Position numbers and translations under genes: made by a program. The notes beneath the pieces were generated by a model, which was not told the origin of the DNA, ran no database searches, and saw nothing but the letters and a program-made list of their open reading frames with translations. Positions 37,001 to 53,784 of a stretch of DNA of 64,000 nt are shown one piece after another; within the stretch, counting starts at the first letter, position 1, and each line of letters opens with the position of its first letter. Source of the stretch: Actinomycetota bacterium (GTDB lineage: Bacteria > Actinomycetota > Geothermincolia > Fen-727 > Anoxymicrobiaceae); contig JAHJCO010000059.1 of the NCBI GenBank assembly GCA_018831265.1, forward strand, positions 76,708-140,707. Direction: 5' to 3'.

Positions 37001-37220
37001 CGCGGATCTCTGTGCGATGCTCGCAACCGGCTGCTTCCCGTTCACCATCAACCCGAACCTCGACCTGACCTACAGCGATTTCGTCTTCGCGTACGGCGAT
37101 GTCGCCGATGCCGCCAGGCAGGCGAGAGTCAAGGTAGATAACCTCGCCAACGAGGCGCTGCTGCCTTACCGCGAGCTGCGCGCCCGCGAGCTGGACGAGG
37201 AACAGGAAGAGGGCGAATGA
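34071..37220 (+). CDS. addB: AddB/RexB-like PD-(D/E)XK nuclease subunit (no Walker A)
   Basis: GTG start with GGGAG RBS; C-terminal RecB-type nuclease motif 'FEVCDYKSG'; ~1050 aa; immediately upstream of and overlapping the AddA-like gene. Confidence 0.7.
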   Translation: MNFQSNTLVEAIASLCAEEPLKPKIIIAPSNRAGNQWLERVAMSGRPVLNAGSRTLRGLALELSAPLLVERGLQLVGGIRAQVLMDRAFARISPKEPYLSRLEPGPGLVRTLLGAVRDLRLAGLDADAVDERAFEVRSKGAEVKALLEAFESVLAEGGLTDYAGCLRLAVERVTSDRGLPLDSLVAIPADLEERLAGLERSLWSAMPESNRRILEVDLPGDPSTDSSRRYMLSFALHPQTAPDPGPDGGGVRMFRAVGEVNEVREVFRRVVEEGLPFDDVEVLYTEPATYLPLLFELASRQAADGSDELPVTFLEGVPTRYSRPGRALAGWLEWVRGGDLPQGTLVRMVHDGLLEIPAVEGGDLSFARLGAILRSVAIGAGRERYLASLDSEARALTSQIVGLDEAEEEGRDARRRIGLSERLEGLGALRELIGGLLEVVPSTGGQAEALSSASLFLERYARHSGKFDEYSRVILLDSVAEIERCLQDGEVAGFEPWSWLDEVISSISVEGSGPAPGRLHTAPVDKGGHSGRGHTFIVGFDEARFPAAGRQDPVLLDGERERLSDDLLTGEARLTRELEQLMLLFARLRGEVTLSYCCRSLIDDRELFPSPVLLSAYRVLEKRDGDQQDLNAYCGDPVSFAPASPESAIDTTEWWLSLACGRTDRLVPTGLVVASFGHLGRGMRAREMRESPEFTEYDGYVPEAASECDPAREGARPLSASALEELARCPLEYFLHRVLRIDPLEEYEIDPNEWLDARQVGHFLHGCFRIFLERLDERGERPSRDAHLAELRRLFDDELAYWRRVVPPHNEASYKAQARMLERAACIFLTEEELHCVDRRPAYFEVSVGRMPDLPGRRGNEIDTAEPVLVSLPKGMVFRAHGQMDRVDELPGAPEGRRFEVCDYKSGGAGRYDVNDPFACGRHVQNILYTLLLQSRLDELFPGARVEGFSYYFPSLYGRGERVGWTMDELEAGETVLADLCAMLATGCFPFTINPNLDLTYSDFVFAYGDVADAARQARVKVDNLANEALLPYRELRARELDEEQEEGE

Positions 37221-40200
37221 CCGTGCAGCCCGCGAGCCAGCCACCCCCGGACCAGGACCAGCGCGACCTGATCGTCAGCGCGCTCGACCGCAACGTTGTG
37301 GTCGAAGCCGCGGCCGGAACTGGGAAGACCACCAGCATGGTGGACCGCATGGTGGCGCTGCTTCGCACGGGTGCGTGCGACGATATCCGGAGGATGGCGG
37401 CGGTGACGTTTACCCGGAAGGCCGCCTCCGAGCTGCGCGACCGCTTCAGACTTGCCCTGGAGAAGGCCGTGCGCGGGGCCGCCGGCGACGAGAGGGGGCG
37501 CCTTGCCGGGGCGCTGGACAGCATAGACCAGTGCTTCGTGGGTACGATCCACTCGTTCTGCGGCCGGCTGCTCCGCGAGCGGCCCATAGAGGCGGGGGTG
37601 GACCTCGCCTTCGAGGAGCTCGACGAGGACGCCGATATGCGCCTGCGCCAGGAGGCATGGGCGGCATATGCCGAGTCGGTGATAGGGCTCGGCCCGGGGA
37701 GCGTGATCGACGAGCTCGACGACCTCAACCTGGACCTGTCCGACCTCGCCGACACCTTCTACAGGTTCGCCGAGTACCCGGACGTGGACGACTGGCCCCT
37801 GCCTCCCGAGAGCGAAATGCTCGAGGACCTCGACGAGGCGGCAGTAGCGGTGAAGCGTTTCACGGAGCGCATGAGGAAGCTCGCCGACAGGCTGCCCAGG
37901 GAGTGCGGCTCGGACCGGCTGATGCCGCGCTACTCGAAGATGCCGAGGGTGGTATCGCACTACGAGGACCTGAGCGAACGCGCTTCCATGCTCGAGCTCA
38001 TCGACATGTTCTTCGACAAGCGCTCGGGCGCGGTGCTAAAGGAGTGGGTGCAGAAGGGCGGGTTTACCCAGGAGGAGGCGCGCTCGGAGCGCGAGGCCTG
38101 GGACGCTTTCCGCGAGGAGTTCGCCGCGCCGCTCGCCGAGGCGTGGCGGGAGCTTCGCTACCGCACGGTCATGAAGGTGATAACCGAGGCCGGGGCCGTC
38201 TACGATCGCATGAGGGCGGAGCGCGGCCAGCTCGACTTCCAGGACCTGCTGATGAAGGCGGCCGGCCTGCTCAAGGGGAGCCCTCACGTGCGCTCCTACT
38301 TCGCAGGGCGCTACTCGCACCTGCTGGTCGACGAGTTCCAGGACACCGATCCCATACAGGCGGAGGTCATGCTGCTGCTTACCGCTACCGACCCCCGCCA
38401 GGACGACTGGCGCCTGTGCGTGCCCCGCGGCGGGTCGCTGTTCGTTGTGGGGGACCCCAAGCAGTCGATATACCGGTTCCGCAGGGCAGACATCGTTACC
38501 TACAACAGGGTGAAGCGGATGATCCTGGAGGGCGACGGCGGGAAGGGCCGCGGCATCGAGGTCCGGCTGTTCGCCAACTTCCGCACGTCGGCGGCCGTCA
38601 TCCAGTGGATAGACGAAGTCTTCGCGCCCAAGGGTGACTGCACGGACAAGTCCGGCAGGCTGGTTTGCTTCCCGGAGGCGGCCTCCGAGCAGTCTCCGGC
38701 CTACGTCCGGCTGGAGGCCGGCCGGAGCGAGTCCCTTCAGGGCGAGCTGGGAGGAGTGTTCCAGTTGACCATACCCTCCGACGAGATCCTGCTCACCTCC
38801 CACCTCGTGGAGGGCGGACCGCCGACCGCGCAGGAGGCCGCGGTCCTGGCGCGCCGGTACACCAGGAGCGAGCTTGCGGCGTCCTACGAGGCGGACCTCA
38901 TCGCCCGCTACATCCGGTGGGCGATAGACGATCGCGTCACCGTTCCCCGAAGCGAGAAGGAGCTCGAGGATATCCACAGGCGCATGCCCTCGTGCGAGGA
39001 CCCGGCCGCGCTTCGGGCCGAGGACTTCCTGATCATCACGCGAAACAAGACCCACCTGAGCACCTACGGCCAGGCACTCCAGAGGTACGGCATCCCGCAC
39101 CGGGTGACGGGGGGCACTGCCCTGAACGAGGTGGAGGAGCTCCGGCTGCTGCTGACCTGCCTCCGTGCGGTGGACAGGGTCGATGATCCCGTGGCGCTGG
39201 TCGGGGCACTGCGGAGCGAGCTGTTCGGCATCAGTGACGCGGCGCTATACCGGTTCAGGAGGAACGGCGGCCGATTCAACTACAACGGCCCGGTTCCCGA
39301 GGGGCTGCCCCCCGGGGACGAGGAGGCCATCACCGACGCCTTCGACAGGCTGCGCCGGTACCGCGGCTGGGTGAAGACCATGCCACCGCTGGCCGCCTTC
39401 GAGAAGGTCGTCTCGGACCTGGGGCTGATGGTGCTGGCCGCGACCCGCGACGGCGGAGACGTCCAGGCGGGCAGCCTCGGCAAGGCGCTCGAGTTGCTCA
39501 GGGGTGACCAGCGCGCGCACTGGAGCACCTCCCACCTGGTCGATTTCCTCGCCGACCTGGTCGAGGGCGAGTTCAGCTACGACGGGGTGTCGGCACGGTC
39601 ACATGAGGTCGGGGCGGTGAGGGTGATGAACCTCCACAAGGCCAAGGGGCTGGAGTCCACGGTGGTGTTCCTCGCCGACGGCTCCGGCGAGCCCAGGTCG
39701 GGCCCGGAGATCGTCATCGACCGCGGCGGCGACCGGACGATCGGCTACATCGGAGTGTTCGGCCCGAGGTGGGGCGCCTGGTACAGGCCCCTGCTGGCGG
39801 CGCCGGGCGGCTGGGCGGACCGCCAGGCGGTCGAGAAGGAGTTCGAGGCCGCCGAGAGGCTGAGGTTGCGCTACGTGGCGGCCACCAGGGCGGGCTCGGC
39901 GATGATCGTGTGCGAGCGCGAGGACGGCAGGGCCAACGGCTCCAATCCCTGGAAGTATTTCAGGGATCACCTCGCCGGGGTGCCCGACCTGCCTGACCCG
40001 GGCCCGAGGAGCGCACCATCACGGGAGGCGCTCGACATCTCGGTGGAGGACGTGACGAAGGCTTCAGAGGAGGCGGCCGGCAGGATGCGGCGCGCAGAAG
40101 GTCCCACCTACGCGAGGCTCGCGGCCAAAGAGTACGCGCTCCGGGGAAAAGATTTTGCAAAAGGGTCAGGCACTTTTGCACCATCAACCACGGGCGGGCC

Positions 40201-40684
40201 GGAGTATGGCATCAACTGGGGCACCGCCATGCACATGCTGCTGGAGCTGGCTATGAGCCGGCCGGGCTTCGATGTCGAGGCCTGGGCGGAGAGGGTGCTG
40301 GGGGAGAACGAGATCGATCCGGGTGAGACGCCGCGGGCGGTGGAGACCGTCCGGGCGGTCACCGGATCGGCGTTGTGGGAAAGAGCCCTTGCCTCCGACC
40401 TGTGCCTGACGGAGGTCCCGTTCCACATGCTCCTCGGGGATGCGGACATCCCCACCACGATGAACGGGGCCATGGACCTGGCTTTCCGCGAGGAGGGGGG
40501 TTGGGTCATAGTGGACTACAAGACCGACAGGATAAGCGCATCGAGGAGCGAGCGGGCCCTGGCGGACGAGTACGCCCCGCAGCTCGAGCTGTACGGCCGG
40601 GCCTGGGCGGGGTGCACCGGCGAGACCGTCAAGGAGACCGGCCTGTTCTTCGTGGACAACCGTACATACCACAGGATCAGATGA
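37217..40684 (+). CDS. addA: AddA/RecB-like UvrD-family helicase with C-terminal PD-(D/E)XK nuclease
   Basis: Walker A 'AAGTGKTT', 'TFTRKAASELRDR'; C-terminal 'GWVIVDYKTDRI'. Confidence 0.85.
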   Translation: MTVQPASQPPPDQDQRDLIVSALDRNVVVEAAAGTGKTTSMVDRMVALLRTGACDDIRRMAAVTFTRKAASELRDRFRLALEKAVRGAAGDERGRLAGALDSIDQCFVGTIHSFCGRLLRERPIEAGVDLAFEELDEDADMRLRQEAWAAYAESVIGLGPGSVIDELDDLNLDLSDLADTFYRFAEYPDVDDWPLPPESEMLEDLDEAAVAVKRFTERMRKLADRLPRECGSDRLMPRYSKMPRVVSHYEDLSERASMLELIDMFFDKRSGAVLKEWVQKGGFTQEEARSEREAWDAFREEFAAPLAEAWRELRYRTVMKVITEAGAVYDRMRAERGQLDFQDLLMKAAGLLKGSPHVRSYFAGRYSHLLVDEFQDTDPIQAEVMLLLTATDPRQDDWRLCVPRGGSLFVVGDPKQSIYRFRRADIVTYNRVKRMILEGDGGKGRGIEVRLFANFRTSAAVIQWIDEVFAPKGDCTDKSGRLVCFPEAASEQSPAYVRLEAGRSESLQGELGGVFQLTIPSDEILLTSHLVEGGPPTAQEAAVLARRYTRSELAASYEADLIARYIRWAIDDRVTVPRSEKELEDIHRRMPSCEDPAALRAEDFLIITRNKTHLSTYGQALQRYGIPHRVTGGTALNEVEELRLLLTCLRAVDRVDDPVALVGALRSELFGISDAALYRFRRNGGRFNYNGPVPEGLPPGDEEAITDAFDRLRRYRGWVKTMPPLAAFEKVVSDLGLMVLAATRDGGDVQAGSLGKALELLRGDQRAHWSTSHLVDFLADLVEGEFSYDGVSARSHEVGAVRVMNLHKAKGLESTVVFLADGSGEPRSGPEIVIDRGGDRTIGYIGVFGPRWGAWYRPLLAAPGGWADRQAVEKEFEAAERLRLRYVAATRAGSAMIVCEREDGRANGSNPWKYFRDHLAGVPDLPDPGPRSAPSREALDISVEDVTKASEEAAGRMRRAEGPTYARLAAKEYALRGKDFAKGSGTFAPSTTGGPEYGINWGTAMHMLLELAMSRPGFDVEAWAERVLGENEIDPGETPRAVETVRAVTGSALWERALASDLCLTEVPFHMLLGDADIPTTMNGAMDLAFREEGGWVIVDYKTDRISASRSERALADEYAPQLELYGRAWAGCTGETVKETGLFFVDNRTYHRIR
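40156..40180. repeat. REP hairpin (TGCAAAAG-GGTCAGGCA-CTTTTGCA) embedded in frame in the AddA-like CDS
   Basis: Encodes ...DFAKGSGTFAP... in the linker before the nuclease domain. Confidence 0.75.
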
Positions 40685-41514
40685 GCGAGCACATGCTTCT
40701 GCCCGAGGTCGACTTCTGCGCCTTCGACCTGGAGACGACGGGGCTGTCCAACTTCAGCCGGATAGTGGAGGTCGGGGCGGTCCGGTTCCGCCTCGAGGCG
40801 GTGCACGACCGTTTCAGCGAGCTGGTCCACCCCGGCAGGAGCATCCCCGAGGTGGTCATCGGCATACACGGAATCACCGACACCATGGTCGCGGGGGCCG
40901 CGGCGGCGCCGGAGGTTATCGATCGGTTCTTCGAGTTCGCGGACGGGTGCGTTCTAGTCGCGCACAACGCGGCGTTCGACTCCGGGATAATGGCCACCGA
41001 GTTGCACAGGGCCGGGCTGGAGCCGCCCGAGCCCCTCATCCTCGACACCATCGCGCTGGCCAGGAGGTTCCTGCCGAGGCTGCCGAGCTACGGGCTGGGC
41101 GCCCTCTCGCGCGATCTGGGCATCGGGCGGCCCCGCAAGCACCGCGCCCTCGAGGACGCGGAGGCCTGCAGGAGGATCTTCGAGAGAACCGTGCTCTCGG
41201 TCCCGGAGTGGCAAGGCCGGCCACTGGACCTGCTGGCCGATGCCGCCGGCGGCTGCACCCTGCGCTACCGGCCGCAGGCGCCCTCCGATCTGCCCCCCGG
41301 CATGGAGGCCATCCTCGCCGCCCTCGAGAGGCGCGGTGACGTGGTGGTAGTCTACAGGGGGGGCAGCAAGGGCACCGTGCCCAGGCGACTGTCGCCGGTA
41401 TCGGTGTACTCGGCGGGGGGTCACTGCTACATGGAGGCCCGCTGCCACGTGGACAACGTGACCAAGTCTTTCAGGGTCGACCGCATCGCCAGCGTAGAGC
41501 TCTGGGAGGACTGA
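40681..41514 (+). CDS. DEDDh 3'-5' exonuclease (DnaQ-like) fused to a C-terminal WYL-like domain
   Basis: Exo I 'FDLETTG', Exo II 'LVAHNAAFD', Exo III 'HRALEDA'; C-terminal 'VVVVYRGGSKG...RLSPVSVY..HCYMEARC...SFRVDRI' WYL pattern; ATGA overlap with the AddA-like gene. Confidence 0.7.
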   Translation: MSEHMLLPEVDFCAFDLETTGLSNFSRIVEVGAVRFRLEAVHDRFSELVHPGRSIPEVVIGIHGITDTMVAGAAAAPEVIDRFFEFADGCVLVAHNAAFDSGIMATELHRAGLEPPEPLILDTIALARRFLPRLPSYGLGALSRDLGIGRPRKHRALEDAEACRRIFERTVLSVPEWQGRPLDLLADAAGGCTLRYRPQAPSDLPPGMEAILAALERRGDVVVVYRGGSKGTVPRRLSPVSVYSAGGHCYMEARCHVDNVTKSFRVDRIASVELWED

Positions 41515-41521
41515 GCTTCCC

Positions 41522-43204
41522 ATGGCCAGGATGATCCCCGAGATAGAGGTCGGCCGGTATCCCCACGGCGAGGGACTCCTCTACCGCTGGCTCAAGGGGC
41601 TGCCCGACGATTACCGCGTCTTCCACGGCGTCCACCTGCTCCGGCAGTCCGGCGGCTCGCTGAGGCGCGGAGAGGCCGACTTCGTGGTGCTCCACAAGGA
41701 CCTGGGCTTCCTGGTGATAGAGGTCAAGGGCGGCAAGGTCACCTGCCAGCCGGGTAGGGGCCGGTGGACCTCGACGGACTACCGGGGCGAGGAGCATCCG
41801 ATCAAGGACCCGTTCCTGCAGGCTGAACGCAACGTCAACGCCATCGTCGAGCGCATCAGGGACTCAGGGGTGTTCGGCCCCGGCCCGCTGAAGACCCTGC
41901 CCGTCACGGTGGGCTACTGCGTAGCCTTCCCCGACGGGGTGGCGCAGCAGAAGAACCTCCCGCTGCACGTGGTGCCGGAGGTCGTCATAGACAGCCGGGA
42001 CGCGGCCCGGATGGCCGCGCGGATCGAGGGGCTGTTCGGCGCCTGGCGAAAGAAGAGGCCCGGATCGCGCGGCTTCACCCCCCGGGAGTTCAACGACCTG
42101 TGCAACAAGGTCCTGCTCACCCGGTTCAACGTGACCGTGCCCCTGAGCGTGAGATTCGGGAGGGAGAAGGAGCGCTTCGAGTCCCTGACCGACGAGCAGT
42201 GCCGCATCCTGGAGACCGTCTCCGGCGGGAAGCGCGCCCTGTTCAGGGGATACGCGGGGACGGGCAAGACGCAGTTGCTGATGGAGAACGCCAGGCGCTT
42301 CGCCGCCGCCGCCGCCCGGGTACTGGTGGTCTGCTACAACCAGCCGCTCGCGGAACTCCTCTCACAGTGGGCCGCGAACGTCTGCGGAGCCGGAGGCGTA
42401 ACGGTCAGGCACTTCCACGGCCTCGCCGAGGAGTATGCCGGCGAGGCGGGTCTCGACTTCGATGTCCCGCCGGAGGACGAGCCGGACGCGCTGCAGGCCT
42501 TCTACGAGAGGGGATCGGCGGCCCTGCTGGAGGCGGCGCTTGCCGAGGCGCCCGGACGTTTCGATTGCGTGCTGGTGGACGAGGGCCAGGACTTCCACCT
42601 GGAGTGGCTGCGGGTGCTCTCGGAGCTGCTCGACCCGGCGGGGATGGACGTCTTCCACATCTTCTACGACGAGCAGCAGAACGTCTACGGCAAGGAGCTC
42701 GAGTTCCCCTTCGAGGCCGTGCCCTACGACCTGAGCTATCAGATGCGCAGCACCGCGAACGTCTGCGAGGTCGCCCGGAAGGCCGGCTCGGTCGATATCC
42801 GGTGCTTCCCAGACTGGGTCAAAGGTGCCCCCGTGAAGTACTTCCCCTACCGTGAACCGTCCGAGCAGGTCGCCCTGATCGAGAAGGTGGTCAGGGAGCT
42901 TCTCGACAAAGGCATCGACCCCTCACAGGTGATGGTGATCTCGTCACACCGCAGGGCCCGCTCCTGCCTGGCCGGGGTCAACCGACTGCAGGGGTACCCG
43001 CTGGTGGAGTACCGGCCCCCCGGCGAGGAGGACACCATCGCGTTCTCCAGCCTGCACCGCGCCAAGGGCCTCGAGTCGGACGTGGTGATCTTCTGTGACG
43101 TGGACGGCGGCGAGCCGTACTGCAGCCGCTCAAACCAGTACGTGGCGGTCTCGCGCGCCCGCCACCTGCTCTACATCATCCACCGCAGGGACTGGAAGCT
43201 TTGA
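41522..43204 (+). CDS. NERD-domain nuclease fused to SF1 (UvrD/DUF2075-like) helicase
   Basis: N-terminal NERD 'GEADFVVLHKDLGFLVIEVKG'; Walker A 'GYAGTGKTQ', Walker B 'VLVDEGQD'; C-terminal 'SLHRAKGLESDVVIF'. Confidence 0.75.
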   Translation: MARMIPEIEVGRYPHGEGLLYRWLKGLPDDYRVFHGVHLLRQSGGSLRRGEADFVVLHKDLGFLVIEVKGGKVTCQPGRGRWTSTDYRGEEHPIKDPFLQAERNVNAIVERIRDSGVFGPGPLKTLPVTVGYCVAFPDGVAQQKNLPLHVVPEVVIDSRDAARMAARIEGLFGAWRKKRPGSRGFTPREFNDLCNKVLLTRFNVTVPLSVRFGREKERFESLTDEQCRILETVSGGKRALFRGYAGTGKTQLLMENARRFAAAAARVLVVCYNQPLAELLSQWAANVCGAGGVTVRHFHGLAEEYAGEAGLDFDVPPEDEPDALQAFYERGSAALLEAALAEAPGRFDCVLVDEGQDFHLEWLRVLSELLDPAGMDVFHIFYDEQQNVYGKELEFPFEAVPYDLSYQMRSTANVCEVARKAGSVDIRCFPDWVKGAPVKYFPYREPSEQVALIEKVVRELLDKGIDPSQVMVISSHRRARSCLAGVNRLQGYPLVEYRPPGEEDTIAFSSLHRAKGLESDVVIFCDVDGGEPYCSRSNQYVAVSRARHLLYIIHRRDWKL

Positions 43205-43320: not shown

Positions 43321-44544
43321 TTAGAACCAGTCCGTCGTCCTGACGTTGGGCTGGTAGAGCATGCCGTAGAGGTCCATCGCGTAGCGGTCGGTCATGCCGG
43401 CGAGGTAGTCGCAGACCACGCGCTCGGCAGGCTCGCTCTCGAGGTCCTCCACCAGGGGAGCGGGGAGCATGTCCGGCTTGGAGGTGAAGGTCTCGTACAG
43501 GCCGCCTAGGATCTTCTCGCCCTTGAAGATCATCCGGCTGACGATCGGGTTCAGGTAGACCTCCTCCAGCATGGCGAGCGCGAAGGCGTGCACCTGGGAG
43601 TCTATGCCCGGCGAGAACGATACCAGCGGGTCGGGCAGCCCGCGCAGGGCCTCGGGGGTCCCCGCTCCCGCCCTGCTCATCCGCGCCACGGTCTCCCTCG
43701 CCACGTCGGTGATGAGGGCATTAATCATCCCGCTTATGGCCCGCATCCGCCCGACGTCCGTTCGGCTGGCGCCCAGGTCCCAGCCGGGGTCCTCGATGGA
43801 GTCGACCATCACCCGGGCGACCTGCGCGATGAGCGGCATCTCCGAGGCCCGCTCCCCGAGCCAGTCGGCGCTGACCAGCCCGATCCTGAGCGCGTCGTCC
43901 AGGTCGTGCGTGCACCAGGCGATGGTGTCGGCGACGTTGACCACCTGGCACTCGGCCGAGGGCTGCGGGTAGGCGGAGAACTCCTCGAGCACCGGCGGCT
44001 CGTCGAACAGCGTCCTGTGCCGCGCCAGCCCCTCGCGCGTCTCCCAGCAGAGGTTAAGGCCGCGGAACGACGGGTAGCAGCGCTCGAGCCAGTCGACCAC
44101 CCGCAGGCCGTGGAGGTTGTGGTCGAAGCCGCCGCCGTCCTTCATCAGCGCGTCCAGGGCGGTCTCACCGCCGTGCCCGAACGGGGGGTGCCCGATGTCG
44201 TGCACCAGGGCGATGGCCTCGGCCAGCGTCTCGTTGAGCCCGAGCATGCGCGCCAGCGAGCGGGATATCTGCATGACCTCAATGGTGTGGGTCATGCGGG
44301 TGCGGTAGAGGTCTCCCTCGTGGGTCACGAAGACCTGGGTCTTGTACTGGAGCTTGCGGAACGAGGAGGAGTACAGGATGCGGTCGCGGTCGAGCTGGAA
44401 GCGCGGGCGCTCCGGCTGGGGCGGCTCCTCGCACGCCCTGACCCGGCCGGCCTTCGCGGGCAGGTCGGTCCCCAGGGACGCCAGGGGCGACAGCTCCCCG
44501 CGCTCGCTGTCGTCGAAGTATGATGCGCCGCGCAGATCGACCAT
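43321..44544 (-). CDS. dgt: dGTPase-family HD phosphohydrolase
   Basis: HD motif 'HDIGHPPFGH'; dGTP triphosphohydrolase-like length and motifs. Confidence 0.85.
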   Translation of the reverse strand: MVDLRGASYFDDSERGELSPLASLGTDLPAKAGRVRACEEPPQPERPRFQLDRDRILYSSSFRKLQYKTQVFVTHEGDLYRTRMTHTIEVMQISRSLARMLGLNETLAEAIALVHDIGHPPFGHGGETALDALMKDGGGFDHNLHGLRVVDWLERCYPSFRGLNLCWETREGLARHRTLFDEPPVLEEFSAYPQPSAECQVVNVADTIAWCTHDLDDALRIGLVSADWLGERASEMPLIAQVARVMVDSIEDPGWDLGASRTDVGRMRAISGMINALITDVARETVARMSRAGAGTPEALRGLPDPLVSFSPGIDSQVHAFALAMLEEVYLNPIVSRMIFKGEKILGGLYETFTSKPDMLPAPLVEDLESEPAERVVCDYLAGMTDRYAMDLYGMLYQPNVRTTDWF

Positions 44545-44546
44545 GG

Positions 44547-45857
44547 TCAGCCCCGGTCCCGGCCTTCGGAGAAGTAGTTGATGAAGAACTGGGGGTTCAG
44601 CTCCGGCGCGAAGTAATGCTTGTGCTTTATCCAGACGAAACCGTCGCTCCGGGTGATCACCGCGACGTCGATGGGACCGCCCACCGACTCGGCGGCGAAA
44701 GACATCCTGGTCCTGAACGAGGTCAGGTTGACGAGCGACTCGGCGATCTCGGACAGCTCGTTCTTGGGCAGGCCCGCTATGACGTCTATGACCGGTATCA
44801 CGTACTTCTTGCGCCGGAACGCCGCGAGCTCCCTGGGTATCTCGGCGGCCCCTTTCCGGATCGAGTCCGCCCGCTTGCGGTAGTCCTCCTTGTCGCCGGC
44901 GTCCTTCAGCTCGCCGATGAGCCCCTCGACCAGCTCCCGGTAAGCGTCGAGCGCGACGCCATACCTGTTGAACACTGTATCGTTGTAGGCGGGCTCCGCG
45001 CCTTCCATGAATGCGTTCACCATCTCGCGGCGCGCGAAGGGGATAACGGCCGCCCGCGTGCCGGAGCCCGTGCCGGACACCCGGTCCTTCTTGAAACGAA
45101 GGTGGTCGCAGACCACGCCGCCCACCAGGAACTCGACCACGGTGGGGAAGATGTCCTTCTCGCCGAAGCCGGCCACCACCACGCCGGAGAGAGTGCCGAA
45201 CTGCGGTGCGGACGGGGACTTGATGAAGATATCGAGAGCCAGCCTGTTGAGCCTGCCCGAGTACGACGGGGAGGCGGGCCAGCGCCGGAACACCTTCCTG
45301 CGGATCTCCCTGATGACCTTCCCGTACTCGCCCTCGAGTCGCTCCGGGAGGTCGGCCGGCGTGCCTGGAAGCTCCTCGGCCTTGTCCCAGACCTTCAGTA
45401 TCGCGCGAAAGGCCTTGTTTGCCGCCTCCCGCTTCTGCTCGTCGGTGGCCGCGGGGTTCTCCTCGACCAGCGAGTTGACCGCGTCACGGAGGACGTTCTT
45501 CACTAAAACGAAGCAGTCAGTGACCGTGGCGGCGAAGTAATCGCGCTGCTCGGACTCGGGGTACAGGCGCATCTCGCCGGAGAGAAAGCCCATGAAATCG
45601 TCGGCGTACTCCTCGAGCGTGTCGAAACACCCCGCGCCGAGCCTCTCCTGGTAGAGGGACACCACGGTCTCCCAGGGCACTCCCATGTGGTTGGCGCCGC
45701 CGAACATCATCACCCCGACCGGGCACTTCCTGGAAAGCGTGAATATCTTGTTGGCGGAGGTGATGACCTTCTCGTCGCGGCCCTTCTGTATGGTCACGGC
45801 GCTATCGGCGGCCAGCGCCACCGCTTCCCTGTTCATAACCACTATCTCGGCGGTCAT
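44547..45857 (-). CDS. Proteasome beta-subunit-type Ntn hydrolase homologue with large insertions
   Basis: 'TAEIVVMNREAVALAADSAVT' matches proteasome beta N-terminus (Thr1); 'GSGTGSGT' and C-terminal 'GGPIDVAVITRSDGFV' match beta-subunit motifs; 436 aa vs ~200; start ATG at 45857 with GGAGG RBS (track start 45926 lies in repeat DNA). Confidence 0.55.
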   Translation of the reverse strand: MTAEIVVMNREAVALAADSAVTIQKGRDEKVITSANKIFTLSRKCPVGVMMFGGANHMGVPWETVVSLYQERLGAGCFDTLEEYADDFMGFLSGEMRLYPESEQRDYFAATVTDCFVLVKNVLRDAVNSLVEENPAATDEQKREAANKAFRAILKVWDKAEELPGTPADLPERLEGEYGKVIREIRRKVFRRWPASPSYSGRLNRLALDIFIKSPSAPQFGTLSGVVVAGFGEKDIFPTVVEFLVGGVVCDHLRFKKDRVSGTGSGTRAAVIPFARREMVNAFMEGAEPAYNDTVFNRYGVALDAYRELVEGLIGELKDAGDKEDYRKRADSIRKGAAEIPRELAAFRRKKYVIPVIDVIAGLPKNELSEIAESLVNLTSFRTRMSFAAESVGGPIDVAVITRSDGFVWIKHKHYFAPELNPQFFINYFSEGRDRG

Positions 45858-45865
45858 GCACACCT

Positions 45866-45985
45866 CCGGGGTCAAACCTGGTTCTTTGCATTTCTTGCAT
45901 TTGGGGTCAAACCTGAGATCTTGCATACCCCTGACGACTGCAACAAGAACGTAAGAAACGCAGAATCTCAGGTTTGACCCCTAGA
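45866..45985. repeat. MITE-like element, family 4: 17-bp perfect inverted repeats GGGGTCAAACCTGAGAT ... ATCTCAGGTTTGACCCC plus extra half-copy
   Basis: IRs at ~45902-45918 and 45966-45982; half copy at ~45868. Confidence 0.75.
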
Positions 45986-46079: not shown

Positions 46080-46535
46080 ATGCGGCGCAGGAGTACGTCC
46101 GGGACGCTCTTCACCATAGGGTACGAGGGTCTGAGCCCTGGTGACCTGGTGAAGACACTGCGGCACAACGGTGTCGAGCTCGTCTTAGACGTCCGCCAGC
46201 GGGCCTCCAGCCGCAAGGCCGGTTTCTCCAAGTCGGTCCTGAAGTCCAACCTGGAGAAGCACGGGATAAGCTACCAGCACTTCCCCGAGCTCGGCAGCCC
46301 ACCAGACCTGCGAAAGAAGTACAACGCCGACGGTGACCGCGCCTACTTCATCCGGCACTACAGGAACTCGCTCGAGGGCAAGGGTTCCATCCTGCAGGAG
46401 TTGGCCAACCTCGCCTCGACGATGCCGGTCGCGCTGGTCTGCTACGAGGCCGACCCGGGCCATTGCCACCGCTCGATCGTGGCCTCCGAGATGGCCCGCC
46501 TGTCGACGCCCGCCCTCCAGGTCCAGGACCTGTAA
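46080..46535 (+). CDS. DUF488-family protein
   Basis: 'TLFTIGYEG...VLDVRQ...GISYQHFPELG' DUF488 pattern. Confidence 0.65.
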   Translation: MRRRSTSGTLFTIGYEGLSPGDLVKTLRHNGVELVLDVRQRASSRKAGFSKSVLKSNLEKHGISYQHFPELGSPPDLRKKYNADGDRAYFIRHYRNSLEGKGSILQELANLASTMPVALVCYEADPGHCHRSIVASEMARLSTPALQVQDL

Positions 46536-50910: not shown

Positions 50911-53784
50911 TTGACCACCCAGGGGGGCGGCCCTATCATGGCGACAAGAAGCCGTACCGAGCATCCCTGGAGGAACGCCGTGAAGAGAAGCATCGCCGCC
51001 GCCCTGCTGACCGTGCTGATCTGTGCCGTCGCCGCGCCGGCGATGGTGCTGACACCGGCGATTGCGGGGCAACCGGCGGGTCCGGCCGTTCCGCGGCCCG
51101 GGCGGTACGCGCCCGGCGAGGTGCTGGTCAGGTTCAGGGAGCCGGTGGGAGCGGGGGCGGTCGAGAGCGCGCTGACGGGACTGGGGGCCAGGCGGGCGAA
51201 GCGCCTCACCGTGAGCGGCATCGAGCTGCTGGAGGTGCCGGGCGGGGTCGAGGAGGCGATCGAGGCGTTGCGGGCCTCGGGGCTCGTCTACTACGCGGAG
51301 CCGAACTACGTGCGCAGCGTCGACTTCACCCCCAACGACACCGATTTCGACAAGCAGTGGAACCTCCACGATACGACGCCGGTGGACGCCGATATTAACA
51401 TGCCCGCCGCCTGGGACATCGAGACAGGGTCGCCGGGCGTGGTGGTGGCGGTGCTGGACACCGGGATCGCCTACCGCGACGGCGGTGGCTTCCATAAGGC
51501 GACTGACCTGGACACGACCGCTTTCACCCAGGGCTATGACTTCATCAACGACGACCAGTACGCCGACGACGACCACGGACACGGCACGCACGTCGCGGGC
51601 ACCGTGGCGCAGAGCACTAACAACAACTTCAGGGTGGCCGGCGTGGCGTTCGGGTGCACACTCATGCCGGTGAAGGTGCTGGACGGCGAGGGCAGTGGCA
51701 CTGACGTCGAGCTCATCCAGGGTCTTGAGTTCGCCTCCACCCACGGGGTCGAGGTCGTGAACATGAGCCTGTCCGGCCCGGAGCCCAACGCCGCGCTCGA
51801 AGAGGCTCTGAGGCTCGCCCGGAGCCGCGGGACGCTGCTGTGCGCCTCGTCGGGAAACGACGACGACCCGCTGGTAGGGTACCCGGCGGCCTACCCTTCG
51901 TGCGTCGCGGTGGGCGCTACAAACAAGAACAAGAACAGGTCTTCGTACTCGAACTACGGCAGCGAGCTGGACGTCTGCGCCCCGGGCGGTGATGGGCACC
52001 TGTTCGCTCAAGGCATCATCCAGGAGACGTACCAGACCCTGGGTAATCCATCAAGCCCGTTCGTCGAGGTTTCGATGCAGGGCACCTCCATGGCCTGCCC
52101 CCACGTCGCGGGCGTGGCGGCCCTGGTGCGGTCCGAGCACACCACCTGGACGGTGGACGAGGTCACCGGGGCCATCAGCTCGACATGCAGGGACATCGGA
52201 GCGGCCGGCTGGGACAACGAGACCGGCTGGGGCCTCATCGACGCGGAGGCGGCCCTGCTGGCCCCCAGGCCGTCGGGGACCGGTCCCGCGATATCCTCGG
52301 TGACGCCCGACCACTCGGACACGGGGGCCGACGCGCATCTGACCATCACCGGCGCCAACTTCGCGACGCCGGCGAAGGTGGCGTTGCAGCGCGAAGGCGA
52401 GCTGGCGATCACCGGGACCGCCATCGCGGTGAGCGGCTCCACACGTATCGACTGCGACGTGGACCTCACCGGTGCCCAGGCCGGCCCATGGAACCTGGTG
52501 GTCGAGAACGACGACATGCTGGGCGACTCGCTGGACGGAGGGTTCGTGGCCGATCCTTCGATGAGTACGACCTGGTACCTGGCCGAGGGCTCGACCGCAT
52601 ACGGCTTCGAGGAGTACGTCCTCATACAGAACGCGGGCGGGACGCAGGCCAGCACTACGGTCACCTTCATGACCCCGGACGGGTCGCTGGACCCGCTGGC
52701 CGTACCGGTGCCCGCGCAGAGCAGGACCACCATCCGGGTCAACGACTTCGCATTGGACACCGACGTATCGACCAAGGTGACCTCCGATGCCGAGATAATC
52801 TGCGAGCGTTCCATGTACTGGGGCGGCAGGATCGAGGGCACGGACTGCATAGGGGTCGAGGCGCCCGCGTACTCCTGGTACCTGGCGGAGGGGACGACCG
52901 ACTACGGCTTCGACACCTACCTGCTGATACAGAACCCCCAGAGCAAAGTGGCAACCGTCTTCGTGACCTACATGACGCCGGAGGGCCCCGTCGAGAAGGC
53001 GCCTTTCGCCATGCCCCCCAACAGCCGCGAGACAATCGTGGTCTCGGAGGACCTGCCGGCCGAGGAGATGTCGTTCAAGGTGCTCTCGGACCAGAGGATC
53101 ATCGCCGAGCGTTCCATGTACTGGGACGGGATGCGCGGGGGGCACGACTCGATCGGCACCGTGACGCCGTCGGAGACCTGGTACATTGCCGAGGGCACGA
53201 CCGACTGGGGCTTCGACGAGTACGTGCTGCTGCAGAACCCGGGCTCCGAGAACGCGACCGTGACGCTCACCTACATGACGCCGGAAGGCCCGGTTCCGCA
53301 ACCGCCGGTGACGGTCGATGCGGGTACCCGTCAGACCATCCACGTGGACGACGTCCTGCCTGCCGAGGACGTCTCGGTGAGGGTGGAGTCCGACGTCGGG
53401 GTCATCGCCGAGCGCGCGATGTACTGGAACAACGGGACCGGCAAGGCCGGGCACTGCGCGATCGGGGTCCTGCAGTCCAGGCAGGAGTGTTTCCTGGCCG
53501 AGGGCACCACCGACTGGGGCTTCGACGAGTGGATACTCATCCAGAACCCGAACCCGGAGCCGGCGAACATCGGCGTCAAGTACATGACCCCGCAGGGCCC
53601 GGTGGACCGGGACGGCTTCGTGCTTGCGGGAAACAGCAGGGTTACCGTGCACGCCAACGAAGACCTGGTGCCGGCGAGCGATGCCTCGGCCTATGTCTTC
53701 TCCGACCGGCGGATAATCGCGGAGCGCTCGATGTACTGGAACGCCCGGGGCGGCGGCCACGTCTCCACCGGGATGATGAAGTAG
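50911..53784 (+). CDS. Secreted subtilisin-like serine protease (S8, with I9 propeptide) fused to IPT-like domain and 4 'YLAEG' modules
   Basis: Signal peptide; catalytic 'VLDTGI', 'HGTHVAG', 'GTSMACPH'; four C-terminal modules (WYLAEGSTAYGF..., WYLAEGTTDYGF..., WYIAEGTTDWGF..., FLAEGTTDWGF...). Confidence 0.9.
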   Translation: MTTQGGGPIMATRSRTEHPWRNAVKRSIAAALLTVLICAVAAPAMVLTPAIAGQPAGPAVPRPGRYAPGEVLVRFREPVGAGAVESALTGLGARRAKRLTVSGIELLEVPGGVEEAIEALRASGLVYYAEPNYVRSVDFTPNDTDFDKQWNLHDTTPVDADINMPAAWDIETGSPGVVVAVLDTGIAYRDGGGFHKATDLDTTAFTQGYDFINDDQYADDDHGHGTHVAGTVAQSTNNNFRVAGVAFGCTLMPVKVLDGEGSGTDVELIQGLEFASTHGVEVVNMSLSGPEPNAALEEALRLARSRGTLLCASSGNDDDPLVGYPAAYPSCVAVGATNKNKNRSSYSNYGSELDVCAPGGDGHLFAQGIIQETYQTLGNPSSPFVEVSMQGTSMACPHVAGVAALVRSEHTTWTVDEVTGAISSTCRDIGAAGWDNETGWGLIDAEAALLAPRPSGTGPAISSVTPDHSDTGADAHLTITGANFATPAKVALQREGELAITGTAIAVSGSTRIDCDVDLTGAQAGPWNLVVENDDMLGDSLDGGFVADPSMSTTWYLAEGSTAYGFEEYVLIQNAGGTQASTTVTFMTPDGSLDPLAVPVPAQSRTTIRVNDFALDTDVSTKVTSDAEIICERSMYWGGRIEGTDCIGVEAPAYSWYLAEGTTDYGFDTYLLIQNPQSKVATVFVTYMTPEGPVEKAPFAMPPNSRETIVVSEDLPAEEMSFKVLSDQRIIAERSMYWDGMRGGHDSIGTVTPSETWYIAEGTTDWGFDEYVLLQNPGSENATVTLTYMTPEGPVPQPPVTVDAGTRQTIHVDDVLPAEDVSVRVESDVGVIAERAMYWNNGTGKAGHCAIGVLQSRQECFLAEGTTDWGFDEWILIQNPNPEPANIGVKYMTPQGPVDRDGFVLAGNSRVTVHANEDLVPASDASAYVFSDRRIIAERSMYWNARGGGHVSTGMMK

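Follow-up and report, generated by a model that had tools for sequence, protein, structure and literature searches.

A probable stand-alone proteasome-like N-terminal threonine hydrolase with multiple helical insertions, usually encoded beside a small partner gene and coupled to a dGTPase gene in one actinobacterial lineage

The stretch of Actinomycetota DNA analyzed here (64 kb, 64,000 nt; referred to as the window) encodes on its minus strand, at 44547..45857, a 436-residue protein that we refer to as the hydrolase. We consider it probable that this protein is a stand-alone proteasome-like N-terminal nucleophile (Ntn) hydrolase, that its relatives are usually partnered with a small protein in a mobile cassette, and that in the lineage of the window its gene is coupled to a dGTPase gene instead. 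Judging from alignments and predicted structures, its function is most likely that of a peptidase acting through an N-terminal threonine (Thr1 in proteasome numbering) and carried on a mobile two-gene cassette. A preliminary description, made from the DNA letters alone, had proposed an enlarged homolog of the proteasome beta subunit, possibly a stand-alone protease similar to Anbu or BPH. Its observation was confirmed and its interpretation was supported in part: the fold, Thr1 and the stand-alone character stood, while the Anbu/BPH affiliation and the significance given to a GSGTGSGT motif did not.

The open reading frame (ORF) consists of 436 codons and a stop, and Thr directly follows Met, as described before, although the minus strand had not been stated. 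Reading from the sequence, a Shine-Dalgarno element GGAGG (45863..45867, minus strand) lies 5 nt before the ATG, and the Met1-Thr2 codons ATG-ACC occupy 45852..45857 on the same strand. The farthest upstream ATG, at 45926, would extend the coding sequence to 44547..45926 (minus strand) and add a 23-residue propeptide. The profile of PHROG 5990, however, aligned over its full length (1-427/427) beginning at the Met of the ATG at 45857, and all 43 aligned homologs (43/43) start with MT(A/S)E. Similarly, nearly all of the best 150 of the 6062 clusters (at 50% identity) that make up the hydrolase family have Met-Thr as their first residues and align from their own residue 1. Because of the GGAGG spacing, the full-length PHROG 5990 alignment and the Met-Thr starts of the homologs, we take the start at 45857 to be correct and reject the one at 45926. 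Removal of the initiator Met by methionine aminopeptidase is established for proteins with Thr at position 2, so Thr2 would become the N-terminal nucleophile after Met loss. The lack of a propeptide is also a feature of the proteasome homologs other than the beta subunits and HslV (Fuchs, Alva and Lupas, Bioinformatics 2021; PMC8665760).

An AlphaFold2 model of the hydrolase built from the family alignment (mean predicted local distance difference test score, pLDDT, 79.5; predicted template modeling score, pTM, 0.75) places beta strands at residues 5-60, 224-273 and 396-412, with two all-helical regions between them (residues ~62-222 and ~277-384) on either side of the beta core. In this model the protein has the alpha-beta-beta-alpha sandwich of proteasome-like Ntn hydrolases. 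The first expanded helical layer (residues ~62-222; 45192..45674, minus strand) contains six helices between the strands E47-52 and E224-230, namely the equivalents of the proteasome helices H1/H2 followed by a helical insertion of ~100 residues. The second layer (residues ~286-384, with the modeled helices at 289-384; 44706..45002, minus strand) consists of the H3/H4 equivalents with an insertion between them, which is shorter in the Firmicute, satellite and plasmid copies according to the alignment of distant copies. The extra helices fall at residues ~139-209 and ~320-362. The two insertions that had been said to roughly double the usual size are thus two helical expansions, and the earlier statement of them was right; the label "regulatory" attached to them is conjecture.

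When this model was compared with the PDB by Foldseek, the top 50 matches were all 20S proteasome alpha or beta subunits or Anbu (5NYW), with probability ~1 and a target-normalized template modeling (TM) score of ~0.5. A TM score of this size is expected because a core of 200 residues sits inside a protein of 436. Among viral models the best match was a phage "proteasome beta type-2" protein, with a target-normalized TM score of 0.60. The best structural matches are proteolytic members of the proteasome family rather than non-proteolytic Ntn families. Matches of the first helical insert to cullins (E 0.012-0.09) were judged compositional, as no cullin appears among the fold matches.

Comparison of profiles gave a consistent register for the catalytic residues once the inserts were taken out. 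The hhalign targets were archaeal beta subunits, all carrying PF00227, collected with a seed 98% identical to the Thermoplasma protein. With the full-length hydrolase only the C-terminal 20 residues, comprising the last strands, were aligned (E=1.6e-4); the C-terminal strand pair alone was aligned at E=9.4e-6, and the middle segment alone gave no significant alignment (E=0.15). With both helical regions deleted, the remaining core aligned end to end, residues 2-190 of this core construct pairing with residues 9-201 of the beta precursor (E=1.1e-4), in a register that equates Thr2 with Thr1, Asp18 with Glu17, and Lys37 with Lys33. The proposal of a proteasome-type Ntn homolog is therefore supported both by the fold matches and by the in-register equivalents of Thr1, Asp17 and Lys33. 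The residues T2, D18, K30, K37 and E390 are invariant in the 43 homologs, and they remain so in copies from phages, satellites and plasmids with identities of 26-34%, so that Thr1 is retained in orthologs down to 26% identity. G48 is invariant and G53 near-invariant, at approximately the spacing after K37 expected for the oxyanion-hole Gly47, in a part where the profile alignment is unreliable. Asp166 and Ser169 of the beta subunit may have their substitutes in E390 and T/S391.

The N-terminal TAEIVVMNREAVALAADSAVT and the C-terminal GGPIDVAVITRSDGFV, quoted in the preliminary description as proteasome-like, are both present in the hydrolase. By plain sequence search, proteasome beta subunits are matched through GGPIDVAVITRSDGFV alone (E ~1), and the corresponding strand pair of the 20S beta subunit, GGMIDVAVITRKDGYV, is near-identical to it. 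The glycine-rich string deserves no weight as a sign of a proteasome: it reads V-SGTGSGT (residues 261-267) and had been misquoted, it is confined to the window protein and the 86% relative P0002, the other family members having unrelated sequence at this position, it precedes rather than follows the strand leading into helix 3, and it is not the proteasome Gly-Ser-Gly.

A further conserved element lies at the C-terminus. The segment D-G-F-x-W-I-K-x-K-H-Y-F...N...Y (residues 405-428; 44574..44645, minus strand) is a candidate interaction motif whose columns D405, G406, W409, K411, K413, H414, Y415, F416, N421 and Y428 are invariant in the 43 homologs, and its D-G-x-x-W...K-x-Y-F pattern is also invariant in the mobile-element copies at 26-34% identity. 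The stretch W-I-K-x-K-H-Y-F...N-P-Q-F-F-x-N-Y (44547-44645 of the window; residues 405-436) belongs to the best-conserved regions in the family. Residues 412-436 nevertheless have an AlphaFold2 pLDDT below 50, and the combination of high conservation with such a low value suggests that this motif folds only upon binding a partner or a neighboring subunit.

The hydrolase is not a 20S beta subunit, Anbu, BPH, HslV or connectase. It shares with the 20S beta subunit (PF00227; Thermoplasma 1PMA) the Ntn alpha-beta-beta-alpha fold and, in register, Thr1, Asp/Glu17 and Lys33, but it is about twice the size, has no propeptide and no Gly-Ser-Gly (Ser129), and carries its inserts at the ring-contact sites of the 20S particle. 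PF00227 was matched by none of the 43 family members searched against Pfam at E up to 10, which gave scattered chance matches in the helical inserts only. Also unlike a 20S beta subunit, it has no alpha subunit, Pup/PafA or ATPase gene nearby: Pfam annotation of the surrounding +/-10 kb revealed no alpha subunit, Pup or PafA, and a beta-subunit hidden Markov model (HMM) run over the whole 64 kb matched only the hydrolase ORF (E=0.11). The earlier statement that no alpha-subunit or Pup/PafA gene lies near holds accordingly, and so does the stand-alone half of the Anbu/BPH proposal (no ATPase, alpha subunit or Pup nearby), while the family half fails. Anbu (5NYW, 5LOX), which ranked 26th among the fold matches, is likewise a stand-alone, ATPase-independent bacterial homolog with Met-Thr and without a propeptide, but it is ~240 residues long with a C-terminal coiled-coil helix that the 436-residue hydrolase lacks. 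The Anbu operon includes transglutaminase, ATP-grasp and Alpha-E genes (PMC5666114). None of these was found at the hydrolase locus, where the neighbors include DUF488, dGTPase and NERD helicase genes, and Anbu was rejected for its different architecture, the absence of its operon partners and the lack of a family model match. HslV and BPH have the same fold and are Thr1 hydrolases too, and BPH likewise acts without a dedicated unfoldase, but the subunits of both are compact, lack insertions and assemble into double rings (for the HslV subunit, see PMC8665760), and HslV pairs with HslU; HslV was rejected as there is neither an adjacent AAA+ gene (HslU) nor an NCBIfam or Pfam match.

Instead, the architecture of the hydrolase recalls a group of proteins already catalogued. 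Fuchs, Alva and Lupas described 22 new proteasome homologs including the "Proteasome homologues with Multiple Insertions" (PMI), of which only PMI-3 and PMI-4 were described as having insertions both after H1/H2 and between H3/H4 (PMC8665760). PMI-4, the most abundant of the novel families (501 nr90 sequences, function unknown), was recorded in Proteobacteria, Firmicutes, Actinobacteria, Bacteroidetes, the Planctomycetes-Verrucomicrobia-Chlamydiae (PVC) group, Cyanobacteria, other bacteria, Euryarchaeota and phages, and no informative genomic context was reported for these proteasome homologs (PMC8665760). We examined 80 species-level loci of the hydrolase family including the window lineage. 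Their bacterial members belong to Actinomycetota, Nitrospirota, Planctomycetota, Verrucomicrobiota, Chloroflexota, Acidobacteriota, Bacillota, Bacteroidetes and Proteobacteria, and their archaeal members to Methanosarcinales, anaerobic methanotrophic archaea (ANME) and DPANN. Other members are found in phages of Providencia, Stenotrophomonas, Porphyromonas and Streptococcus, and on plasmids of Rhizobium, Mesorhizobium, Ruegeria, Pantoea and Enterococcus. No Cyanobacteria, which are recorded for PMI-4, were seen among the loci sampled. The family is most likely PMI-4 (less likely PMI-3), as matched by published descriptors and not by sequence to HDY66466.1; PMI-4 is the best assignment because it has the same two insertion sites and is the only abundant family with matching taxa. 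The two also share the proteasome-like core with Thr1/Asp17/Lys33, a long insertion following H1/H2, a second one between H3/H4, the absence of a propeptide and of an associated AAA+ ATPase, and a broad, patchy distribution. Proteasome homologs of this architecture are already catalogued, which the preliminary description had missed, and the hydrolase is a divergent new member of an uncharacterized kind. Our literature search found no experimental work on PMI proteins and no proteasome-like defense systems.

In contrast to the absence of informative context in the published account of PMI-4, a small partner ORF accompanies the hydrolase gene at more than 90% of the loci examined here. At the first four loci other than the window, an ORF of 58-60 codons comes next to the hydrolase gene on its downstream side, either overlapping it or 0-3 nt away, and one of the four had not been called as a gene. 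An HMM built from four sequences found the partner ORF directly downstream and on the same strand at 55 of the 80 loci, and an iterated HMM raised this to 74 of 80, with at least three of the six missed loci carrying recognizably diverged versions. Examples are L003:9299-9475, L008:9291-9467, L009:9301-9483 and L005:9304-9480, besides 70 further loci (L012-L090). The ORF evolves as coding sequence, the third codon position being the most variable, and starts with ATG in 49 of 54 copies. It encodes a basic protein of 52-68 residues (mean net charge ~+5) with the consensus M..K..K.Y.S..EFEK.FFPKS....D....GI.LA.ESL..IR..L., and often goes uncalled. Its motif S-x-x-E-F-E-K-x-F-F-P is strongly conserved and the Pro is invariant. 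An AlphaFold2 model of the partner (pLDDT 84) predicts a disordered N-terminal tail, a short helix bearing the motif, a kink at the Pro and a helix of ~35 residues. The partner matched no family in Pfam or PHROG; it matched 67 unnamed database entries, one of which (CVT88_08720) adjoins a gene for the large protein (CVT88_08715) by locus tag. The partner probably binds the hydrolase, as its regulator, inhibitor or substrate. This near-universal small partner gene is a new context for the family, which the preliminary description had overlooked.

Everything else around the pair varies, which makes the hydrolase and its partner an autonomous two-gene cassette. No conserved third gene emerged, in that no Pfam family occurs more than three times among the 141 genes flanking the 80 loci, where defense models recur in at most four; many of the flanking genes are housekeeping genes such as those for ThiC, CTP synthase and CO dehydrogenase. 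In each of the five annotated mobile-element records checked (5/5), an ORF of 46-58 codons comes after the hydrolase gene; the small ORFs of phages and mobile elements show no detectable sequence similarity to the partner and are positional equivalents only. In temperate phages the cassette lies beside the lysis genes (the lambdoid "moron" slot). In seven Streptococcus satellite prophage records (matches H7-H13, among them L091, Streptococcus satellite phage Javan103, 4001-5380) the hydrolase gene and the small ORF are the last two genes, a typical position for accessory cargo. One copy adjoins type I restriction-modification and SIR2-HerA genes, and others lie among HicAB, ParE and MqsA modules. 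On the Mesorhizobium plasmid MesoLj131c2 (L096, 1-4437) the hydrolase is annotated with ~45 additional residues, its C-terminal tail being basic and of low complexity, and its gene lies ~1.2 kb from divergent genes for a ThiF-family adenylyltransferase and a "multiubiquitin domain" protein; this single instance suggests a bacterial ubiquitin-like system in the neighborhood.

The window lineage departs from this arrangement. Neither of the two partner HMMs found a partner ORF in the 64-kb window (best E 0.23 and 0.7), and a fusion of the partner to the N-terminus of the dGTPase was rejected as there is no similarity. Instead, the hydrolase gene is followed on the minus strand by a gene for a dGTPase-family HD phosphohydrolase (43321..44544; Pfam HD and HD_assoc), which starts 2 nt after the hydrolase stop (junction TGA-CC-ATG). 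Because of this spacing, the two genes are probably co-transcribed and translationally coupled. The neighbor had been called a dGTPase, and it is borne out as a dGTPase-family HD protein by Pfam, NCBIfam and PADLOC, the best of the NCBIfam dGTPase models scoring 363.8 bits against a cutoff of 390 and the PADLOC dGTPase model giving 1.8e-91. By the NCBIfam alignment, the dGTPase carries ~14-30 extra residues at its N-terminus. On the other side, divergent from the hydrolase gene, is a DUF488 gene (46080..46535, plus strand; Pfam DUF488 and DUF488-N3a; PADLOC candidates PDC-M19A and PDC-M45). The DUF488 protein belongs to the active N3a subclade; its gene stands in the same place at L001, L011 and L094 and is not a neighbor elsewhere in the family. 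Both the dGTPase coupling and the divergent DUF488 gene recur in a 97% relative (L011) and an 86% relative (L094), and the dGTPase arrangement is present at none of the other 79 loci, so that it is limited to the window lineage. The window copy forms a divergent branch, with 41% identity to the other members as compared with 58% among those, and differs from the bulk of the family both in this and in having the dGTPase where the partner would be. All catalytic candidates and 108 of the 144 near-invariant positions are retained in it, and for this reason it is probably functional. The coupling to a dGTPase gene may hint at a link to nucleotide metabolism or defense.

Upstream of the hydrolase gene, the 13-mer CAGGTTTGACCCC occurs in three exact copies, which are the only ones in the 64 kb (0.12 expected by chance) and are all conserved in L011. 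Copy 1 (45868..45880, minus strand) abuts the Shine-Dalgarno element, copy 2 (45903..45915, minus strand) is in direct orientation, and copy 3 (45969..45981, plus strand) is inverted and lies just downstream of a CATAAT hexamer on the hydrolase strand. The triple repeat looks like a candidate operator for some regulator.

Beyond the dGTPase gene, a run of genes for nucleic-acid enzymes extends over 37217-43204 on the plus strand. An AddA/AdnB-like UvrD-PD-(D/E)XK protein is encoded at 37217-40684, and a second PDDEXK_1 protein upstream of it. The fusion of a DEDDh exonuclease with a WYL domain is encoded at 40681-41514, and at 41522-43204 a NERD-UvrD helicase matching the PADLOC models "RTasNERD-Hel" and "NERD+UvrD"; this run could be a repair cluster or a defense island. 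Farther away, a secreted-looking subtilisin of 957 residues unrelated to the hydrolase (50911-53784, plus strand) consists of Peptidase_S8 with a fervidolysin-like N-terminal propeptide domain, followed by several beta-rich repeated modules of ~110 residues (weak DUF5719 match).

We propose the following mechanism. Translation begins at Met-Thr, as the start-site evidence shows, and methionine aminopeptidase would strip the Met and expose Thr1. The Thr1 hydroxyl, activated via the free alpha-amine together with Lys37 and Asp18, would then attack the substrate at a peptide or amide bond, in the way that proteasome beta subunits, HslV and Anbu do. In the predicted structure both helical layers are greatly enlarged where the 20S particle has its pore loop and its ring-ring contacts. 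As the insertions fall at these sites, a canonical stacked-ring barrel seems unlikely, and the inserts more probably provide a surface for binding substrate or partner. Normally the small helical partner would assist the hydrolase, be its substrate or control it; at more than 90% of the loci the two form a cassette, which would move horizontally on prophages, phage satellites and plasmids. In the actinobacterial lineage of the window the partner is absent, the dGTPase gene is coupled to the hydrolase gene, and the operator-like triple 13-mer lies upstream.

The strongest alternative concerns the role of the cassette rather than its chemistry, and is therefore compatible with the proposed catalytic mechanism. 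It holds that the cassette is a toxin-antitoxin, abortive-infection or superinfection-exclusion module, with the DUF488-hydrolase-dGTPase arrangement of the window as an anti-phage unit, which we regard as possible, if doubtful. The patchy phyletic distribution, with ~40% identity across phyla, and the copies on plasmids, in the moron slot by the lysis genes and at the extreme end of the satellite prophage records would all fit such a role, as would those near restriction-modification, SIR2-HerA, HicAB, ParE and MqsA genes. The order of a large gene and then a small, fast-evolving partner also resembles toxin-first toxin-antitoxin modules, and the window neighbors match PADLOC models for dGTPase, NERD-UvrD, DEDDh-WYL and candidate DUF488 systems. 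However, it is only these neighbors that match, the hydrolase itself matching zero PADLOC families (PADLOC-DB v2), and the dGTPase falls below every NCBIfam cutoff, that of the anti-phage model included. No defense family occurs more than 2-4 times among the 141 flanking genes, many of which are housekeeping genes, and a lineage that lives without the partner argues against an obligatory antitoxin. A more specific version, in which the cassette is an unrecognized mobile toxin-antitoxin or abortive-infection module built on a proteasome-like Thr protease and the window lineage has lost the partner and been rewired to a protease-controlled nucleotide-depletion defense with dGTPase and DUF488, seems distinctly unlikely.

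Another alternative is that the hydrolase acts as a sequence-specific transpeptidase or ligase, or as a processing enzyme making a single cut, with the partner, or here the dGTPase, as its substrate. Connectase (DUF2121; 6ZVZ) offers the precedent: it is a monomeric proteasome homolog with ligase activity (PMC7980362), with Thr1 after Met as in the hydrolase and with extra helical elements that confer specificity. The insertions at the ring-contact sites speak against a self-compartmentalizing barrel (AlphaFold2 model; PMC8665760), and the partner motif with its invariant Pro could be a recognition site. Yet connectase lacks H1/H2, has a two-helix insert between S3 and S4, is confined to methanogens and acts on MtrA. 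The hydrolase, in contrast, has no S3-S4 insertion of this type, with only a short, low-confidence loop at residues 22-33, its H1/H2 helices after S5 are present in the AlphaFold2 model, it has no Pfam match, and no connectase structure appears in the top 50 fold matches. Membership in the connectase family was rejected on these grounds, and an enzyme of this narrow specificity is an unlikely explanation overall. It is highly improbable that the hydrolase is a catalytically dead scaffold, a pseudo-enzyme similar to the proteasome alpha subunits with an N-terminus of structural value only, as despite the missing Gly-Ser-Gly (Ser129) element and the presence of alpha subunits among the fold matches, the invariance of Met-Thr, Asp18, Lys37 and Glu390 down to 26% identity is hard to explain without catalysis, and alpha subunits do not expose a Thr1 but have an extended N-terminus (PMC8665760).

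Several points nevertheless weigh against the stand-alone, partnered Thr1 hydrolase that we prefer. Homology to proteasomes is weak at the sequence level: scans of the hydrolase protein against Pfam, NCBIfam and PADLOC gave nothing significant, no Pfam or NCBIfam match was obtained for the 43 members, phmmer and profile searches of the PDB reached archaeal beta subunits at E 0.2-1.4 (the profile searches at E >=0.2) and via the C-terminal strand pair only, and the hhalign probabilities to beta subunits are only 51-83%. Because of this weakness, the proteasome assignment rests mainly on predicted structure and in-register conserved residues. No conserved counterpart of the beta-subunit Gly128-Ser129-Gly130 was found, the aligned residues being A-x-I of the motif AxIIPFAQ, and proteins of the proteasome fold can be ligases (connectase) or inactive (alpha subunits). 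The role of the partner is purely inferred, and the window copy has none. Finally, PMI-4 is linked to the hydrolase by architecture and distribution, and its representative HDY66466.1 was not among the accessions of ten family clusters.

Taken alone, the finding in the window adds a further divergent member to a family already catalogued. Thr1 proteasome homologs outside 20S, HslV, Anbu, BPH and connectase have been catalogued and none has been characterized, and this family is among the largest of them. Compared with the 2021 survey, the tiny helical partner, the carriage on mobile elements and the dGTPase swap in one lineage provide experimental handles, and the most useful new information is the near-universal partner gene together with its lineage-specific replacement by a dGTPase gene. 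If the hydrolase were sequence-specific in the manner of connectase, it might also be of biotechnological interest.

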